From: Ionaspis alba
Taxonomy: Eukaryota
Assembly: GCA_964255285.1 (NCBI GenBank)
Contig: CAXUUL010000096.1
Location: 1-32,989, forward strand
Reading direction: 5' to 3'
DNA length: 32,989 nucleotides
Positions 8,681 through 32,989 of this stretch are shown one piece after another. Numbering within the stretch: position 1 is the first letter of the stretch; each line of letters opens with the position of its first letter. The notes beneath the pieces were generated by a model. That model was not told the origin of the DNA. It saw nothing but the letters and a program-made list of their open reading frames with translations, and searched no databases. A program made the translations under genes and the position numbers.

Positions 8681-11600
8681 CTACTTGGTTGCCTCCCGCG
8701 CTTCACTTGCCGGACGCGGCTGACCACGTTTTGCAGTATCATTGACTGACCTTTCTTTTTCGAGATCCTTACCAGGCGAAACCGTGGCAGGCGCGTCTTT
8801 GCCATCGCTATCTGATGCATTTGATACCGTTTCAGGCTCTCTTTCCACGTCCGGATGGGGTGGGGCGAATCCTTCGGCTCCAGGTGTTCCATCGGCAATT
8901 TCATTCCCAGCAGCGTCAAGCACTCTCGTTCTTGTCTCATATCTGGTCGAGAACGACACCTTTCCCTCCAAAGACTTCACTTGCTCCTCATTGAGAAGAT
9001 TGCCGTCCTGATCGCGATACTCAACCTTCTCCTCTCGGCTGAGTACGGATCCTGGGGCTTGAGCCTGCGGGGTGACTACGGCCTCACTAACGGGAATTTG
9101 GCTCTCAATCACAACGTCAGCTGGTGGAGGGACTGCAGCCGAAGGGGCTGCAGTCTGTTCTCCACTTGGTATCACAGCCACGTTCGCCGAATATTGATTC
9201 AACTGGATCATTTAGTGAGTACTGGATTGAGCGATAGAATGGACGTTACGGCGCAATACTTACGTCTGTATGAAAGGTGTTGCAATCCCAATCCCACTTG
9301 TCAAAGAGCTTGACTTTCCTGCAGGCATCTTGCGTCCACGGATTGCCATAAGACAATGGTGCATACATAGTGAAAGCAACAATACTGACCGCAAGGAACG
9401 CAGCAATACCCCCTTTCCCTATCATGGGCCTCTCCCTTAGACCGATGCCGGTGATACGAGTGGTGAGATGATCATAAATCTGACATAACGTCATGATAGC
9501 GAAGTAAAGGGCAGGGAAGTAGTGATGGAGAAAGAGCTGGCGTTGCATGAGAAAGAAAGGGAAGTAATGGAAGAACCATCCTAGTACGGAGGTACCAATT
9601 TCGTAATCAAACCGCTTGAAAGTGGTATTGTCGTAGTCCTGATATCCACGCTGCCATCGAAGTACTGATAGTGCCTTGAAGATGAGATAGATGGCTATAG
9701 CCGCTGTGGACGACCACCAGATGATCGGGTTGCCAATGAGATATATTTGCCGATGGTCTTTGCCCCAGAAATTGATTCCACGACGCAGAAAAGGCCACGA
9801 GGGTGGCCGAGAGTCCCAGGCGTGGGATTCCACCAAGCCGGCATTGGTCGTCCACATGACTTTTTGTAGCTCCCAAAATTTGCCCAGAAAGCCTGGATTG
9901 CGGTAATTGACTCGCTCTGCGTCCGCACCGAGCATTGGGTGCTCGTTCTGCTCTACATACCAGATGCTGTTTGGCAGTGTGCCTTGCTTTGCGCAGGTGA
10001 CTTCCTGTTGTTCGAAAGCCCAATCCGGGAGCTTGACCTTGTGAGAGAAAAGACTGCATCCGGTCATGACATGGACGAGCTTGAACTTCGTCTGAATGGT
10101 ACGTAGACGGGTCTTTGCTTGGACACCATCGCACAGCGATTTTACTATCTCCACTCTAAATAGATCGTTTGCATCTCCCTCAAAGCCTTCATAGCCATAA
10201 GCGGAGACTTCGTTCTGCCAATCTGCTTCCGTGATCGGAGGTCGAACGTCATGAGAGTGGAGGCGGCGATCGGTCGTGACGTGGTACAAGCGCAGAATGG
10301 CACCATCTAGGATCAATGTGGGATCCAAGGTGTCCCAGGCTTTTGGTCCCGCGATCGGTCCTGTCAAGCCTTCGGGTTGTGTCTGATTTTCGAGCAACCA
10401 GACGTTATTCTCGTCCTTGTGTGGATAGAGAGTGATCTGCTGCTGCTTGCTTCCGGTTGGATACATGTGATTATGGGAGTGTAAGTATCCTCCTTGGGTG
10501 TTGTGGTGTCTGAAACTGACCCTGCTGCCTAGTACAACATCGACGGGAACGTCATGCATAGACTTGGTATTGAGTGTGGCCTGGAACTCGGAAGACATGA
10601 AACCATCGCCATCACCAGGATTTACAAGGCAGACGAAATGTATAGCAAACAGAGCCATGTAGAAGGCGATCGGAATGAGTACCAGACAAAATACGCGTGC
10701 AAGGAAATGCTTGAACCACAGACGCTGGACCACGAATTAGCAGCTAATCTAGGACTTTTCGACTCGTTTTGGGGCACTCACAGGAGTCACAGTATTGGTG
10801 TCTCCCAACAGAACCCATAGTTGTGTTATTGTCAAACTTCCCACCCAAGCTATGGTAAAGAGTCCGACCCATTTAACGCTGACAGTGGCGCCCAGACCGA
10901 GCCCGGTAGCAGCCAGCCAAAACCACCAACTGGGATCGAAGGCCTTGGCAGGACCTTGCTCGTGCTGGTTGGTAAAGCAGGTCCACGCCAATGCGGTGAA
11001 GGCGGTGAAGATGATCAAGGGGGAGTCGAGGAGGATGAGACGAGACTGCGTGAGCAACCCATTCTCTATGACGAGACATCAGCTTGAGATATCTTGCGGT
11101 CACTCAAGATATCTTACCAAAAATGAGCAGCCCAGCACCCATGGCTGCAGTCGTTGTGCGACAACCAGCAGCCTTAAGAGTCAAGAATATTGTTGGCACA
11201 GTCATCACACCCATCAATGCAGGCAAGAGACGCATAGCGACATATGGGACCCCAGGCTCGATGTAATCCTTGCCGATGTCCTTAAAATCAAAGTCGCCAT
11301 TGAAGCCAGCGAGCCAACCAGCCAATGTGATGAGTAGTTTAGCCAATGGAGGATGGACATCCATGAAGAATCTGCCCTTGATATATTTAGAGGCAAATCC
11401 GCCAAAACTTCGATACACAATCAGTAAATGTTGCCAGACTTGAAGTTCTGGCATCCATGGACACTCACTGGACTTCATCAAACACAACGCTGCTTGGCTG
11501 ATAGATCCTGAATAGCCGTACAACGGCGGCTAGAATGGTGAGAGTCAACAGCAGTTGCAAGTCAGACCCTGGGAGCAGAAATATGTCATTGTCCGTGACC

Positions 11601-24506: not shown

Positions 24507-25689
24507 TTTGGTCCCTCTCCGCATGTCGTCAAGAGCATGAAGGAGCGATATATATTTGCGTTACGGATAAGCCTGGTCAGTCCTTATATGAAAAAATCGG
24601 TACAGCAAAATGTCTAATTAAGGCTAAACAAAGCGAGGTGTCAACACGTCAAAAACATCAGGGTCATTCCGTTGAAGGATGCCAACCAGAGAATTTTTGA
24701 AGGACGGCTGTTGCGCCATGTCGACAGATAAACGCACCCGCAGGGCAATGTGATTCAAGCTTGGAAAAAGTTTAACAAGAAGAGGCCATTCCTAGTCAGC
24801 ATAGACGTCAACGGTTATCTTCTTTCAAAGAAAGACCAAGAAATTTGCTTCTTTCTTTGGGGATGGCCTTTTTACTCCAGTGTTATGAGTGCCTTCTTGG
24901 GCAGGCTTTTGACCTGTCACGGTATTCCGGTGACAATTGATCCACTTTCGAGCTCAACCATATACATAAAATCAGCATTCAGCTTGGGAATGACGCTGCG
25001 GTTTTCCTAATAATTTGACAGTACATCGTCGCTCGGCACTCCTCTTCCGATATCGTCTCCCACAGGTATCAAAAGCTAGACCGCTCGACCTGTGCGCATC
25101 AGGAGTAGAACTACACTGTATTGATCTGTGCATTAGCCACTCCTCCCTCCATAAACTCTTAGTCTCGTATAAGAGGCCCGCGAGGGTTCGTAATACTAGC
25201 AGTAATAGCCCACACGAAAACTATTTATCGAAGGGCATAGTTAACGAAGGGTGAGATCGTAGAAAACCTATATGATTCAGAGTCACCCACAATGCGACCT
25301 AGACTATAGCATTGTTCATACTTCAGATAGATGTCGTAGATGCCTGTGGCACTATTGGTATCAGAAAATTACCTTTGCAAAACAATTAAACGATACATGC
25401 ACAAAAAGCCGCTGAGCCCGAAAAGCAAATCAACCAAAATACCTCGGGAGGATCACAGTCACAGTTATGAGCTAAGACGAAAAGGGTAATGCTACGGTCC
25501 TTTTGGAACATAGTTGATGTAGATGAAAGATGGTCCATTCTTTCTATAAACTACTGCTAGGTATTTAACGTACCGATCCGTGGATAACTCACGGAAGGTA
25601 CCTGATTTGTGGCAAGCACGGCCACGTATTGTGACAGGTAACTTACTAAAATTTATATACAAGCTTAAAGAGATCACAGAGATAACCCT

Positions 25690-26069
25690 CAAAAACAATT
25701 ATTTTATTAATTCAACCGCCTCTGTTTTCGTTTTCGTTTTCGTTTTCGTCAAAAATTTCAAGATTTGTTTTAATCGAATTTTTTTTATATTGTTGTTGTT
25801 GTTTTTTTTTTTTTTGTCGTTTATGATCCAATTAACCGAACAAATTAATCTTTTTTAAAACTAGCGAAAAAAAGACAATTTTTTTTGAAAAATATTGCAG
25901 TTTCAATTGAAGGCTTTCCATATAAACTAAATAAATAATAAATATAGTTTTTTGGGGGGGGGGATTTATTTTTGTGATTTTGCGACAAAACTTCAAAAAC
26001 GTCGAAAACACCATAAAATATTGAAAAATCGTGAAAATATTGATATATTTTATTTTATTGTGGACTAGT
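25690..26069. mobile_element. AT-rich low-complexity island, possible degenerate (RIP-like mutated) repeat remnant
   Basis: Hand count about 24% GC over 25741-26040, versus visibly GC-balanced flanking genes. No credible ORF; sharp right edge at GACTAGTTC. Confidence 0.45.
25724..25815. repeat. Microsatellite cluster: (GTTTTC)4, (TTG)4, poly-T
   Basis: gttttc x4 at 25724-25747; ttgttgttgttg at ~25790-25801; T14 at 25802-25815; also G10 at 25954-25963. Confidence 0.85.
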
Positions 26070-26279
26070 TCATGACTGCGACTGTAATCCTCCCGAGGCA
26101 TTTTGCAAGTCAACATCTGACAGAGTAGATTATGGCACGCTAGTCCCGGAGGAAAAAAGGTGCTCGACGATATCAGATGGATGTCTACTTGATCATCCTT
26201 TGAAGATCACAATAATTCACTGTTAGACTTAGCATCTGACCAATTCTCTTATTCCTCTCTTCTCCCCAGCATACCAAAG

Positions 26280-29261: not shown

Positions 29262-30403
29262 ATGCATCGGAATTTTGCAAAAAGCCTGGCTCTTCCTTTG
29301 ATTTCAAAAGCAGTGCACATCTCCATGGCTCGCAGCAGCCTGATTGCCAACCGTTGCGTCGGCCAATGCCGCCTCGCCCACAATCCAGCGGATAGTCCAA
29401 ATTTCACGTCCATTGTCGACAACCCTCCCCAGCTGGTGAAGAGCGGAAAAAAACATGGCCCGGGTCTGATTGTTCTAGGTCTGGCACCTGGTGAGATTCG
29501 ACCACTGCGTGGCTAACGTGATTGCAGCCATAATCCCGATCACCGCATTTGCTCTGGGAACCTGGCAGGTGTTTCGACTTGGCTGGAAGACAGAATTGAT
29601 AGCTCGGTTCGAAGATCGTCTGATTCGCGAACCTCTTCCCCTACCACCGCAGATTGACCCTTTGGCAATTAAGGAGTTTGATTATAGGCGGGTGCACGCT
29701 ACCGGACGGTTCCGGCATGATCAAGAGATGCTTATTGGTCCTCGAATGCATGACGGAAATAATGGATATCTCGTCGTCACACCACTCGAGCGAGAAGGTG
29801 AGGGCACCACAATTCTTGTGAATCGTGGCTGGATTCCCAGGAAACTCTACCGACAGGCAGACAGGACGGAGGGGTTACCCACTGGTCAAACAACGGTCCA
29901 GGGCCTACTGAGGGAACCGTGGAAGAAGAACATCTTCACCCCGGACAACAAGCCAGAAAAGGGTCAATTTTACTTCCCAGACGTGGCACAAATGGCTCAA
30001 GTCTCTGGTAGCCAAGCCGTTTGGATCGAGGAGACAATGGGTGTGTCTCACGGATTTAACACTTGATCCAATCAAGATTTGAGACTGACAAGCTATACAG
30101 TTCCAAATCTGCTGGAAGCCTATGACCGAGAAGCTAAAGGGATTCCGATCGGCCGTGCGGCGGAGGTGAACCTGCGAAACAATCATACACAATATATCTT
30201 TACATGGTCAGCTATTCCAGAATCAATTGCTACCGAAGTCTTTCCAACGATAATTGTTGTACCTTCGTTTGCCCAAGAAGCTAAAATTAATTGGACAACG
30301 TAGGTATGCTCTATCTGCTGCGACTACAATTATGCTATGGATGGTAGTACGCAAACCTCCGTCGGATATCGCTCGGAGAGTCAGGCAAAATAAGGAATGG
30401 TAA
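29262..30403 (+). CDS. SHY1: Cytochrome c oxidase assembly factor Shy1/SURF1; exons 29262-29478, 29528-30040, 30101-30206, 30304-30403 (311 aa)
   Basis: IPITAFALGTWQVFRLGWK, EFDYRRV, GYLVVTPL, ILVNRGWIP, LRNNHTQYIFTW|YALSAAT. Three GT-AG introns in frame. Confidence 0.94.
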
Positions 30404-30459
30404 ACGACGAGAGGGGCAGCCAAATCTTATCTGCCATTTTCCTTCGATCGAAACAAAAA

Positions 30460-32211
30460 TCACATTAATGGCACCGCCTCGGAATGTACAGGCCTACCCT
30501 GTTCCATTCGAATGTCCTGCACTAATTCCCTTGAGAGGTATCTCTGTGCCAAGGAGAATGGCGTATTGGTAGTATTCGGCAGTCTCTGCCGGTATGAGGT
30601 GTAAGCACGATTGCTCCGAACGAACGAATCCACGTTAGAGACTGGACAACGCACCTTCGCATCAAAGCATTCATATCTGTTTCATCCACCATCATCTTGC
30701 CGGCATGTTCTGCATACGCACCAAGGTCATCGCCCATCTGCTCGAAGAACCGTTCGCTTGCTTGCGCGACAGCTTTTAGAGTTGTCTTCTCTACTCTTGC
30801 CTTCCTGTTGCTGTTCGGCCCTATTGCCGAGCTTACAAGCCTCTCGACTTTCCCTCTTGGAATCCATGAATATACAATTCCCATGACGTGACGATCTTCG
30901 TTCCCTCGGATTGAGCTTCTGGAGCTGGGTGGCGTCGCTCGGGATGCCTGACGGCAGCAATGCGGCCCGTCGCAAACCCGCATCAATGTCCACGGTCTGC
31001 TCAGGACACGGATCCAGACCTGCAGGAAGTGGTTCTCTGTCTGAACTGATTGGTAAATCAAAAGCGAAAGTCGTATCGCCGTCATAGAGCAGTTTGCGAC
31101 CACTGCGATTATCATAATGGATCGAAGAGTCTCTCAAATCTAGATTCATGAGCCACCTTAGATCGGCAGTATCTTCACTATACCTGGTCAGCCCACGGTC
31201 GTGGGAAATGATACGTGACGATATACTGACCCAAGGTCTGTGGTTTGGGTATCTCTCTCATGGTCCTCTGGACCATGAGAGAGCGCCTCTGGTCTAAGAG
31301 TGTCGTCCGTAGGAAATTGGGTGGAATCATCTGGTGTTCCGAAGGAGCCACTTGATCGCGAATTTACCAGACTCCCTCTTGACAACCTACCGTGCCACTT
31401 CGATCGAGCTGTGAAATCGAGTCTCGTCTTATAAATGAACAGAAAGCCGTGGTGGAGCGTCAAAGTCGTCGTCGCCGTCGTTTTCATTTTCCTCAACCAA
31501 AAGTGACGATCTTGGCCTTGGAATGTCATGATCGTCCTCCAATTCCTTGTTATCGGGTTTAGAATGACGCTTTGCACTTTATGCCGCAGAAGGAGCCGGC
31601 TTGATTGATACAGAGTCTTTTGACAAGACTATTGAACAGATAGGTTAGCTGGGACTTCAGCTTTCTCAGAGCAATCCGCTCAATCACGTAAGTATATCAT
31701 TACTAAGACTCCGTAGAACATCCCTGGGAGTCTCGCGCTGCGAAGGCCCTCTTCTGCCCCTGTCTCGACCTGGAGTTAGTGCAAATACTACTCGTCTTTG
31801 TTCCAGTGCTCGAAGCCCATGCGAAGTTGTGTGTTTGGCGCTTAGTCCGGAGTGATTCAGCCGAACGACTCCGCCTGGTGCAGGACCATCGAACCGAGAA
31901 GTGGTGCTAGAAACGTGGTTGGATCGCCGAATCCTATCAATAGGTACAGGAGGCTTTCTTATCATACCAGTGAGTTGTCGGAGCTAAACGACGAGCTGTC
32001 AGACACTGCACGGAAGAGCTATGGCACAGGGCCATACACTGCTATACGGGGTTCCCGTAGTATGAGATGATTCTAGGCTCCCAGAGCCAGTATTGTGAGG
32101 TGTCCGGCGTGACTGTACAGTATCCAGAACTGCAAACTCATCCTCGAAGCCATTCTCAGGACGGAATGTAGATTGGGGCAGCTTCGATGAACGATGCGTC
32201 GGGCCCAACAT
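30460..32211 (-). pseudogene. cnp20: Disrupted CENP-T (Cnp20/Cnn1) inner-kinetochore histone-fold gene
   Basis: Recognisable segments TPYSS|LRQL, ALTPGRDR...QRETPRDVLRSLS, PRPRSSL, APPRLS, GRLSRGS, DTTFAFDLP, SRHG, and histone fold AQASERFFEQMGDDLGAYAEHAG...MRR|QR...TPFSLAQRYLSRELVQDIR. These are interrupted by in-frame TAA at 31581-31579 and 31431-31429, frame changes near 31392 and 30879, and a non-AG acceptor at 30592-30590. Confidence 0.8.
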
Positions 32212-32628
32212 GGCGATATCTAACACAAGATGGCCCGAGCAGCGCCTCAGTACACTCAAATGCACGATTACGATATGCCGAGTACTCGGATATGTACATC
32301 GACTAATTGGGAGGCCAGCAGATAGTAATTGTCGATCTCTGATGTAGTTGCTAGCGTGGCACGCGCCTGACAAACCAGATGATACACCGAACGAGATATT
32401 GAGCAGGCTCACTTTCTAAGTCCCTTAAAAACAATGGATTGTAGGCGGATAGTTTAGTGAGCGTGTAAGTCATAAACATTGACCCGGCTGGGCAACAATT
32501 GTAGGAGCACCACTTTTTTGTGTAGATATCATTTATTTTGTCAAGCATGTGCGCGGGTGTATAGGACAAGACGCAAACTTCGGTCTTCGTACGAGGAAGG
32601 CTAAAGATCCTAACGGAATTAATGTGGA

Positions 32629-32985
32629 ACTAGTCTCGCCCACCACCAAAATAATTAAACCACCAATATAATCACTAAAAGTCTTGGTATTTTTTTTTTC
32701 TTTTTTTTTATTTCCACGTTTCTCTACGCCTTTTATATATATTATATTAATAAATTAACGCGTATTTATTGTTTATATATTAATTTTTATAAAATATTTT
32801 TATAAAAACGCGAAATTCGATTTTTAAAAACTCTCGACGTTTATAAAATAAATTATTTTTATAATATTTACGAATTTGTTTGTATTTTTAATATTTTTTA
32901 TACAATTTTACGTCGTCGAATAATTAAAAATAAATTAATTAAAAAAAATTCAATAAACGTTTTGATAAGGTCAAGCCTTACTAGT
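32629..32985. mobile_element. AT-rich island bounded by ACTAGT hexamers, probable RIP-like mutated repeat remnant
   Basis: Hand count 38/240 (about 16%) GC over 32701-32940; 13 of 16 G residues are in CpG; ACTAGT at 32629-32634 and 32980-32985. Confidence 0.5.
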
Positions 32986-32989
32986 GGAC

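Follow-up and report, generated by a model that had tools for sequence, protein, structure and literature searches.

A probable CENP-T pseudogene at its likely ancestral position beside SURF1 in a Pezizomycotina fungus

Two main bridges connect centromeric chromatin to the microtubule-binding outer kinetochore, and CENP-T is one of them. Here, we examine a stretch of 32,989 nucleotides (contig CAXUUL010000096.1 of the Ionaspis alba assembly GCA_964255285.1; hereafter the window) in which positions 32211-30460, read on the minus strand, most probably hold the positional orthologue of fungal CENP-T/Cnn1, now a pseudogene, in a Pezizomycotina fungus. Two C-terminal open reading frames (ORFs) match the Pfam family CENP-T_C (PF15511), one with E 3.3e-20 (72.6 bits, where the cut-off is 28.1, over profile positions 3-77) and the other, in the next exon, with E 6.1e-6, which bears out the identification made in a first-pass annotation of the sequence. 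Full-length orthologues map along the whole gene in collinear order in tblastn comparisons, and a MAFFT alignment of the window gene with 12 named or full-length orthologues places all conserved CENP-T blocks in order. The same order is found in an alignment with four orthologous metagenome loci (L046, L053 and L058, near full length, and L071, partial) and five of those 12 proteins. From N to C terminus, one can recognize a TP-rich region, RETPRD.LR.LS, an acidic linker, PPRLS, SIE..RR, TTF, the histone fold and a C-terminal extension. The block TPGRDRRRS..QRETPRD.LR.LS of the N-terminal arm, which we take to be the part of CENP-T that binds the outer kinetochore, is present and alignable, and the C-terminal extension RLPNTTNTPFSLAQRYLSRELVQDIRM (of the type TPFSLAQ..LPRELLQ..RM) is 55-75% identical to those of relatives. 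The nearest named proteins are KAI9716087.1 from a Candelaria pacifica metagenome-assembled genome (MAG), KAE8443433.1 from Mollisiaceae sp., ELR03210.1 from Pseudogymnoascus destructans and KAI9835403.1 from a Sarea resinae MAG. The parts of the gene are laid out as follows.

32038..32211, minus strand: exon 1, open from the ATG at 32211; encodes the TP-rich N-terminal region and aligns with the N-termini of intact orthologues
31984..32037, minus strand: intron 1, 54 nt, with consensus signals (GTATGG...CTGAC...TTTAG); L058, too, has an intron here
31704..31983, minus strand: exon 2, with the conserved N-terminal block (T[PS]H..LRAL..RR, TPGRDR..QRETPRDVLRSL)
31692..31703, minus strand: intron-2 donor region; the ancestral site reads ATATAC (31697-31692), and GTAATG (31703-31698) is a possible in-frame substitute
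31629..31703, minus strand: intron 2 if the substitute donor is used (GTAATG...GCTAAC...AATAG), its length a multiple of 3
31178..31230, minus strand: intron 3, 53 nt, with consensus signals (GTCAGT...GCTGAC...ATAG)
30655..30878, minus strand: histone fold (CENP-T_C), open, with replacements at conserved columns
30584..30654, minus strand: last intron; native donor kept (AG followed by GTGCGT), ancestral acceptor lost (CCG at 30592-30590), and GCTTAC where L058 has GCTGAC
30460..30585, minus strand: C-terminal exon, with the CENP-T-specific extension TPFSLAQRYLSRELVQDIRM, CENP-T_C profile positions 76-106 and the stop TGA at 30462-30460

The junction of exon 1 with exon 2 across intron 1 had been read in the same way in the first-pass annotation, as had the interruptions of the gene that follow. 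The reading frame is broken at four places.

31579..31581, minus strand: TAA no. 1, in frame, between APSAA and SAKRH; the aligned residue in L046 is Q
31429..31431, minus strand: TAA no. 2, in frame, between PPRLSVHL and DETRF and thus between the conserved PPRLS and SIE blocks
31387..31392, minus strand: frameshift 1 (+1), one extra base within the SIE[LV]xRR motif (GCA CGG TAG G...)
30879, minus strand: frameshift 2 (+1), one extra base (CAT GGG A ATT) between S[KR]HG and I.YP.LP, at the entrance of the histone fold

Both TAA codons stand in the frame of the conserved blocks that flank them. At frameshift 1, which had been placed near 31392 between SIEVA and GRLSRGS, SIEVA ends at 31393 and LSRGS starts at 31385, and the old frame meets a TAG at 31389-31387; at frameshift 2, SRHG ends at 30880 and IVYSWIP starts at 30878. 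Two ancestral splice signals are lost as well. The acceptor of the last intron is YAG in seven related loci, followed by [G/A] CAR CGN CAR (a phase-2 intron, then R-Q-R-Q), and the window has CCG there; the intron-2 donor is GTGAGT or GTAAGT after an A in L046, L053 and L058, and in the window a G is followed by ATATAC. In these three relatives the same motifs run uninterrupted, and stops occur only inside intron-like insertions. Five or six independent lesions had originally been counted. Four of them, the two TAA codons and the two frameshifts, are hard and inactivating; the intron-2 donor and the last acceptor are soft, as both have in-frame substitutes and their loss is not necessarily inactivating. 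Taken together, the two stops, the two +1 shifts and the two lost splice signals mean that the full-length protein can no longer be made.

The first-pass annotation had held that the lesions were not sequencing errors and had proposed a check against the reads. Contigs built from the reads of a sequencing sample, X1, are identical to the window over 30300-32400, with no other letters and no gaps in two long pieces of word depths 133 and 116, and they show no indel or base variant at any lesion; the lesions are therefore not assembly errors. X1 may be the sample behind the window's own assembly, and it thus confirms the reads and not a second individual. Low-depth pieces (2.5-5.9x) from X2, another sample of the same study into which X1 material could have been carried over, are identical to the window at the two TAAs, at frameshift 2, around the intron-2 donor and across the last intron. 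No contig of run X3, also from this study, matched the stretch, which is no proof of absence, and a contig of a different organism, B, in X2 (28x) matches only 30300-30400, in the last SURF1 exon, with 17 differences, and is unlike the window beyond. X1 also contains a variant bubble at 31237-31299, just upstream of the intron-3 donor, with two forms that differ at 3 letters and have word depths of about 61 and 31, pointing to more than one genotype or nucleus type in the sample.

Splicing offers no convincing way around the breaks. For each lesion, we listed all GT/GC-AG introns of 30-600 nt that restore the frame without a stop. There are 18 single-intron solutions for TAA no. 1, 13 for TAA no. 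2, 3 for frameshift 1 and 7 for frameshift 2, and not one of them has a CTRAY branch motif, in contrast to the real introns 1 and 3 with their consensus donor, branch and acceptor. Aligned residues are removed by the bypasses of the first stop, conserved aligned residues by those of the second, and conserved histone-fold residues by those of frameshift 2, while the best bypass of frameshift 1 (40 nt) costs 14 codons. At the ancestral end of the last intron, the first good acceptor nearby (CAG, 30588-30586) shifts the frame. Judged from the sequence, the four hard lesions are without a plausible intron bypass, and the escape considered in the first-pass annotation, a transcript that splices around all lesions into a full ORF, likewise has no in silico solution with a branch motif.

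The surroundings of the gene were compared with 80 loci that carry a CENP-T fold, found by scanning public metagenome contigs with conserved histone-fold motif patterns.

29479..30403, plus strand: SURF1/SHY1, main exon 29479-30066, last exon ending with TAA at 30401-30403; Pfam SURF1 E 1.2e-48
32358..32989, no strand assigned: upstream repeat in the place of CMS1, RIP-like and AT-rich from about 32640 to the contig end (RIP, repeat-induced point mutation)

In 70 of the 80 related loci, SURF1 lies convergently and directly downstream of CENP-T, as it does in the window, in agreement with the SHY1-adjacent orthologue that had been anticipated. Beyond SURF1, as far as the flanks of the relatives reach and with the order checked by eye, UBX is found in 40 loci, CHCH in 24, PanE in 17 and Coq4 in 7. 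This shared neighbourhood on the SURF1 side indicates that the window's CENP-T sits at its ancestral position. The SURF1 and CENP-T stop codons are 57 bp apart in the window, so that the 3' untranslated regions of the two genes must overlap; the convergence is equally tight in relatives. The neighbours had been described as intact, and as far as tested they are: the housekeeping genes of the window (M20 peptidase, SET, DHHC, PMT, PRP21, Sec2, Coq4, ketopantoate reductase, CHCH, UBX and SURF1) have long open exons that align with those of relatives over almost their full length, and 20 neighbouring ORFs of 163-512 aa are open, 13 of them with matches to Pfam families. A genetic code in which TAA is read as a residue can be rejected, as the conserved neighbouring ORFs are open without it and SURF1 itself ends in TAA. 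The best named relatives of the PMT protein (Coniosporium 87%, Hypocenomyce 86%, Candelaria 84%, Watsoniomyces 82%) come from several Pezizomycotina classes. At 90% identity, the window PMT (9246-10736, minus strand) also falls into one cluster with four further ENA proteins, one of them from a 782-kb contig, so that close relatives of the window fungus have already been assembled.

On the 5' side, the locus departs from this arrangement. Among the 43 relatives with enough flank, 27 have a divergent CMS1 gene (PF14617, a 90S pre-ribosome subunit) upstream of CENP-T, 1509-1937 bp from the fold and with a short promoter shared by the two genes (for example L002:8038-8418, L030:7963-8346 and L037:7811-8476, all on the minus strand). 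CMS1 has no match anywhere in the window: where the 3' side of the orthologous position matches relatives (SURF1, UBX, CHCH, PanE, Coq4), the 5' side has a repeat instead. Other X1 and X2 contigs match the window from 32358 on and differ before, which sets the repeat edge about 147 bp upstream of the ATG of CENP-T. The DNA between about 32640 and the contig end has a GC content of 0.20, TpA/ApT 1.08 and (CpA+TpG)/(ApC+GpT) 0.53, the composition left by RIP. Nine relatives were checked for a comparable AT-rich block in the 4 kb upstream of CENP-T and had none, and no further copies of the repeat were found within the window or in the 80 loci. Elsewhere in the window, an AT-rich patch at 24800-26100 between the ketopantoate-reductase and CHCH genes has a GC content of 0.38 and TpA/ApT of 0.90, and contains a 40-nt inverted repeat (25435-25474 / 26066-26105) of 87.5% identity.

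RIP leakage was considered as the main cause of the stops and rejected, as the CENP-T gene itself is without a RIP signature (GC 0.507, TpA/ApT 0.65, composite RIP index 1.17). The composite index is 1.32 in the 3' half, which contains the most diverged part, the fold, and a borderline 1.05 in the 5' half. TAA no. 1, opposite Q in L046, would fit a CAA-to-TAA change, a single case in which the ancestral codon is deduced.

The histone fold of the window has itself changed to a degree that suggests relaxed constraint. Among 30 fold columns with conservation of 80% or more, the window departs from the common residue at 10, compared with a mean of 2.56 for 158 other proteins, of which only 4 reach 10; among the changes, R replaces W in [DE]WFFEQ and KMM replaces RKT after HAG, and the fold is only 39-50% identical to any other. 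We used SURF1 identity as a clock in a relative-rate test on non-redundant loci, leaving out those with an incomplete or stop-containing segment and those at least 97% identical to one already kept. At 75-82% SURF1 identity, fold identity is 74% among the other loci and 44% in pairs with the window. At -0.208, the mean residual of the window fold ranks 1 of 40 (the standard deviation of the others is 0.049), so that the fold is about 21 identity points more diverged than SURF1 predicts. The other parts of the gene deviate in the same direction relative to SURF1, with residuals of -0.071 for the N-terminal block in exon 2 (rank 1 of 17) and -0.11 for the C-terminal block (rank 2 of 10). The neighbouring genes do not share this trend, and their residuals are +0.012 for UBX (rank 13 of 18), +0.092 for PanE (rank 14 of 14) and -0.059 for CHCH (rank 2 of 18). 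Replacements at conserved sites of the fold have thus accumulated much faster than changes in the neighbours, which argues that constraint on the CENP-T protein was relaxed. Some other folds are also fast relative to SURF1, with residuals of -0.157 in L080, -0.102 in L050 and -0.081 in L053, whose gene is intact.

The timing of this acceleration bears on an earlier suggestion that CENP-T was lost recently. In a crude simulation of neutral drift on the L046 coding sequence, excess fold divergence of 10% is accompanied by 2.5 expected in-frame stops (probability of 2 or fewer, 0.53), 20% by 5.0 (0.145) and 30% by 7.4 (0.045). The two stops observed, against the 5.0-7.4 expected at 20-30%, suggest that part of the acceleration probably preceded the frame breaks. 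A recent loss is doubtful for the history as a whole: with the fold so far beyond the SURF1 prediction, constraint was probably relaxed well before the frame broke, or else a good while has passed since. In our view, rapid evolution of the fold was probably under way for some time before the frame broke, and 'recent loss' fits the breaks and not the entire course of events.

A number of observations weigh against reading the locus as a pseudogene and against the proposed cause of its decay. Canonical in-frame substitutes exist for both splice-site lesions, which therefore need not have inactivated the gene: GTAATG at 31703, already pointed out in the first-pass annotation, lies 6 bases upstream of the destroyed intron-2 donor and keeps the frame at the cost of 2 residues, and the native last donor could be joined in frame to GAG at 30586-30584 (71 nt) or to the GAG ending at 30614 (41 nt, with a CTCTAAC branch). 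The 40-nt bypass of frameshift 1 has a strong donor, GTAGGT, and would recreate an R-GSFG junction resembling that of relatives. Only two in-frame stops are present and much of the protein is still recognizable. Conserved fold motifs served to find the comparison loci, which biases the set toward conserved folds and inflates the contrast with the window, and the early acceleration could reflect a function that had changed and was still under selection at that time. That the promoter insertion was the trigger is something we infer, and CMS1 may be located just past the repeat, since the contig stops within it.

That the lesions are mistakes of sequencing or assembly is barely credible. Both frameshifts are single extra Gs beside other Gs, as an error might produce, but the X1 contigs agree with the window at word depths of 116-133 and without variants at the lesions, the X2 pieces carry the same sequence (with the caveat of carry-over within one study), and four of the lesions, the two TAA codons and the two splice-site changes, arose by substitution and not by a homopolymer slip. 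A gene that still functions through unconventional splicing, stop-codon readthrough or frameshifting is very improbable. A frame-restoring single intron can be drawn for each lesion, and, taken one by one, exon 1, the N-terminal block, the histone fold and the C-terminal extension remain open; such a gene would nonetheless need four extra introns with weak donors (GTATCA, GTCAAA, GTCACG, GTCATG or GC-type) and no branch motif, often of 34-50 nt, at places where no relative has introns. Every one of these introns would remove residues conserved in relatives, and the replaced conserved residues of the histone fold would remain to be explained. We give equally little credence to truncated products with partial function, either an N-terminal fragment of about 170 aa up to the first TAA or a fold-only protein from an internal ATG at 30884. 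Both pieces are open, and this ATG (HVMGIVYSW...) stands directly before the fold in the fold's present frame; however, the N-terminal piece lacks the centromere-targeting fold, and the fold-only piece depends on the damaged last intron and carries the replacements at conserved positions. Neither form occurs among the retrieved relatives, which were selected by their fold, so that an N-terminal-only form could not have appeared among them.

A more serious alternative, although we regard it as unlikely, is that the locus is dead and the pathway is kept: a functional CENP-T paralogue or homeologous copy would reside elsewhere in the genome, and the ancestral copy would decay as redundant. CENP-T is essential in several organisms, and the 2:1 bubble in X1 signals that the sample is not of a single genotype or nucleus type. 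A paralogue that is intact and conserved would share only about 45-50% identity with the window fold and could hide among the unnamed matches, looking like a foreign orthologue. Against such a copy, the only protein more than 52% identical to the window fold among 1.84 billion representatives is the window's own 71-aa fragment, and the homologue search gave no relative of 111-356 aa and only three, distant ones of at least 357 aa. A recent duplicate should align well over the lineage-specific middle region (31177-30900), and not one of the 158 retrieved proteins does. None of 71 high-scoring segment pairs falls outside the gene, which leaves no second copy within the window. RIP, which is established in Neurospora as acting against DNA duplicates, bears on this as well: the genome shows RIP-like degradation of repeats and we presume that duplicates would be affected here too, and the CENP-T gene itself, as noted above, shows no trace of it.

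Our favoured account, that of a decayed CENP-T gene at its ancestral locus, can be extended to a tentative sequence of events. We propose that a repeat, later degraded by RIP, may have inserted into the short bidirectional promoter of CMS1 and CENP-T, about 150 bp upstream of the CENP-T ATG. This insertion would have silenced or weakened CENP-T, which then would have decayed. Such a course presupposes that CENP-T was dispensable in the lineage, as Cnn1 is in budding yeast, and CENP-C-Mis12 would then serve to recruit the outer kinetochore, unless another CENP-T copy is present in the genome. Whether the organism lives without CENP-T function altogether is close to an even question, on which we lean slightly toward a remaining function. 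The full scenario, in which a Pezizomycotina lineage gave up CENP-T wholly and its only copy is decaying at the CMS1-CENP-T-SHY1 position after a RIP-degraded transposon hit the shared promoter, is possible, and we hold it with less than even confidence.

The gene shares with ascomycete CENP-T/Cnn1/Cnp20 proteins (PF15511) the order of domains and conserved blocks from N to C terminus, three intron positions in the relatives examined (that of intron 1, present in L058, and those of intron 2 and of the last intron) and the same convergent SURF1. Unlike these relatives, it has four frame breaks, two lost ancestral splice signals, a diverged fold and no CMS1 neighbour. In Saccharomyces cerevisiae, Cnn1 is dispensable, and the CENP-C/Mif2 and Ame1-Okp1 routes recruit the outer kinetochore. 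An ascomycete can therefore live without CENP-T, although S. cerevisiae, unlike the window fungus, keeps an intact and conserved Cnn1. In Basidiomycota, a published survey describes recurrent loss of CENP-T together with most subunits of the CCAN (constitutive centromere-associated network), leaving CENP-C as the sole conserved linker in 23 of 31 orders (Sridhar et al. 2021, Nat Commun 12:146, PMC7794384). Complete losses are documented outside Basidiomycota, too. If CENP-T was lost here, the likeness to the basidiomycete cases is that a fungal lineage does without the CENP-T linker; the difference is that the basidiomycete losses are complete absences recorded in genome surveys of another phylum, and the window has a decaying remnant at the ancestral locus in Pezizomycotina. 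A full-text literature search found no report of natural CENP-T loss in Pezizomycotina, which is not proof that none exists. The window is a new case of an already known kind of event, CENP-T loss.

The practical weight of the case is limited, as metagenome contigs are all that is known of the organism and it may have a second copy of the gene. Its interest lies in what a remnant can tell. The ease with which a lineage drops CENP-T shows the redundancy of the two bridges to the outer kinetochore, and a remnant at the ancestral locus, unlike losses seen only as absences, offers a dated and mechanistic picture of how decay was ordered, here probably with the fold first and the frame afterwards. 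A candidate trigger, the repeat in the bidirectional promoter, is visible as well. The window fungus also gives a specific lineage for asking if the decay of CENP-T extends to CENP-W, CENP-S/X and the remaining CCAN. If CENP-T has indeed been given up, the CENP-C-Mis12 route alone would suffice for a filamentous fungus with regional centromeres.

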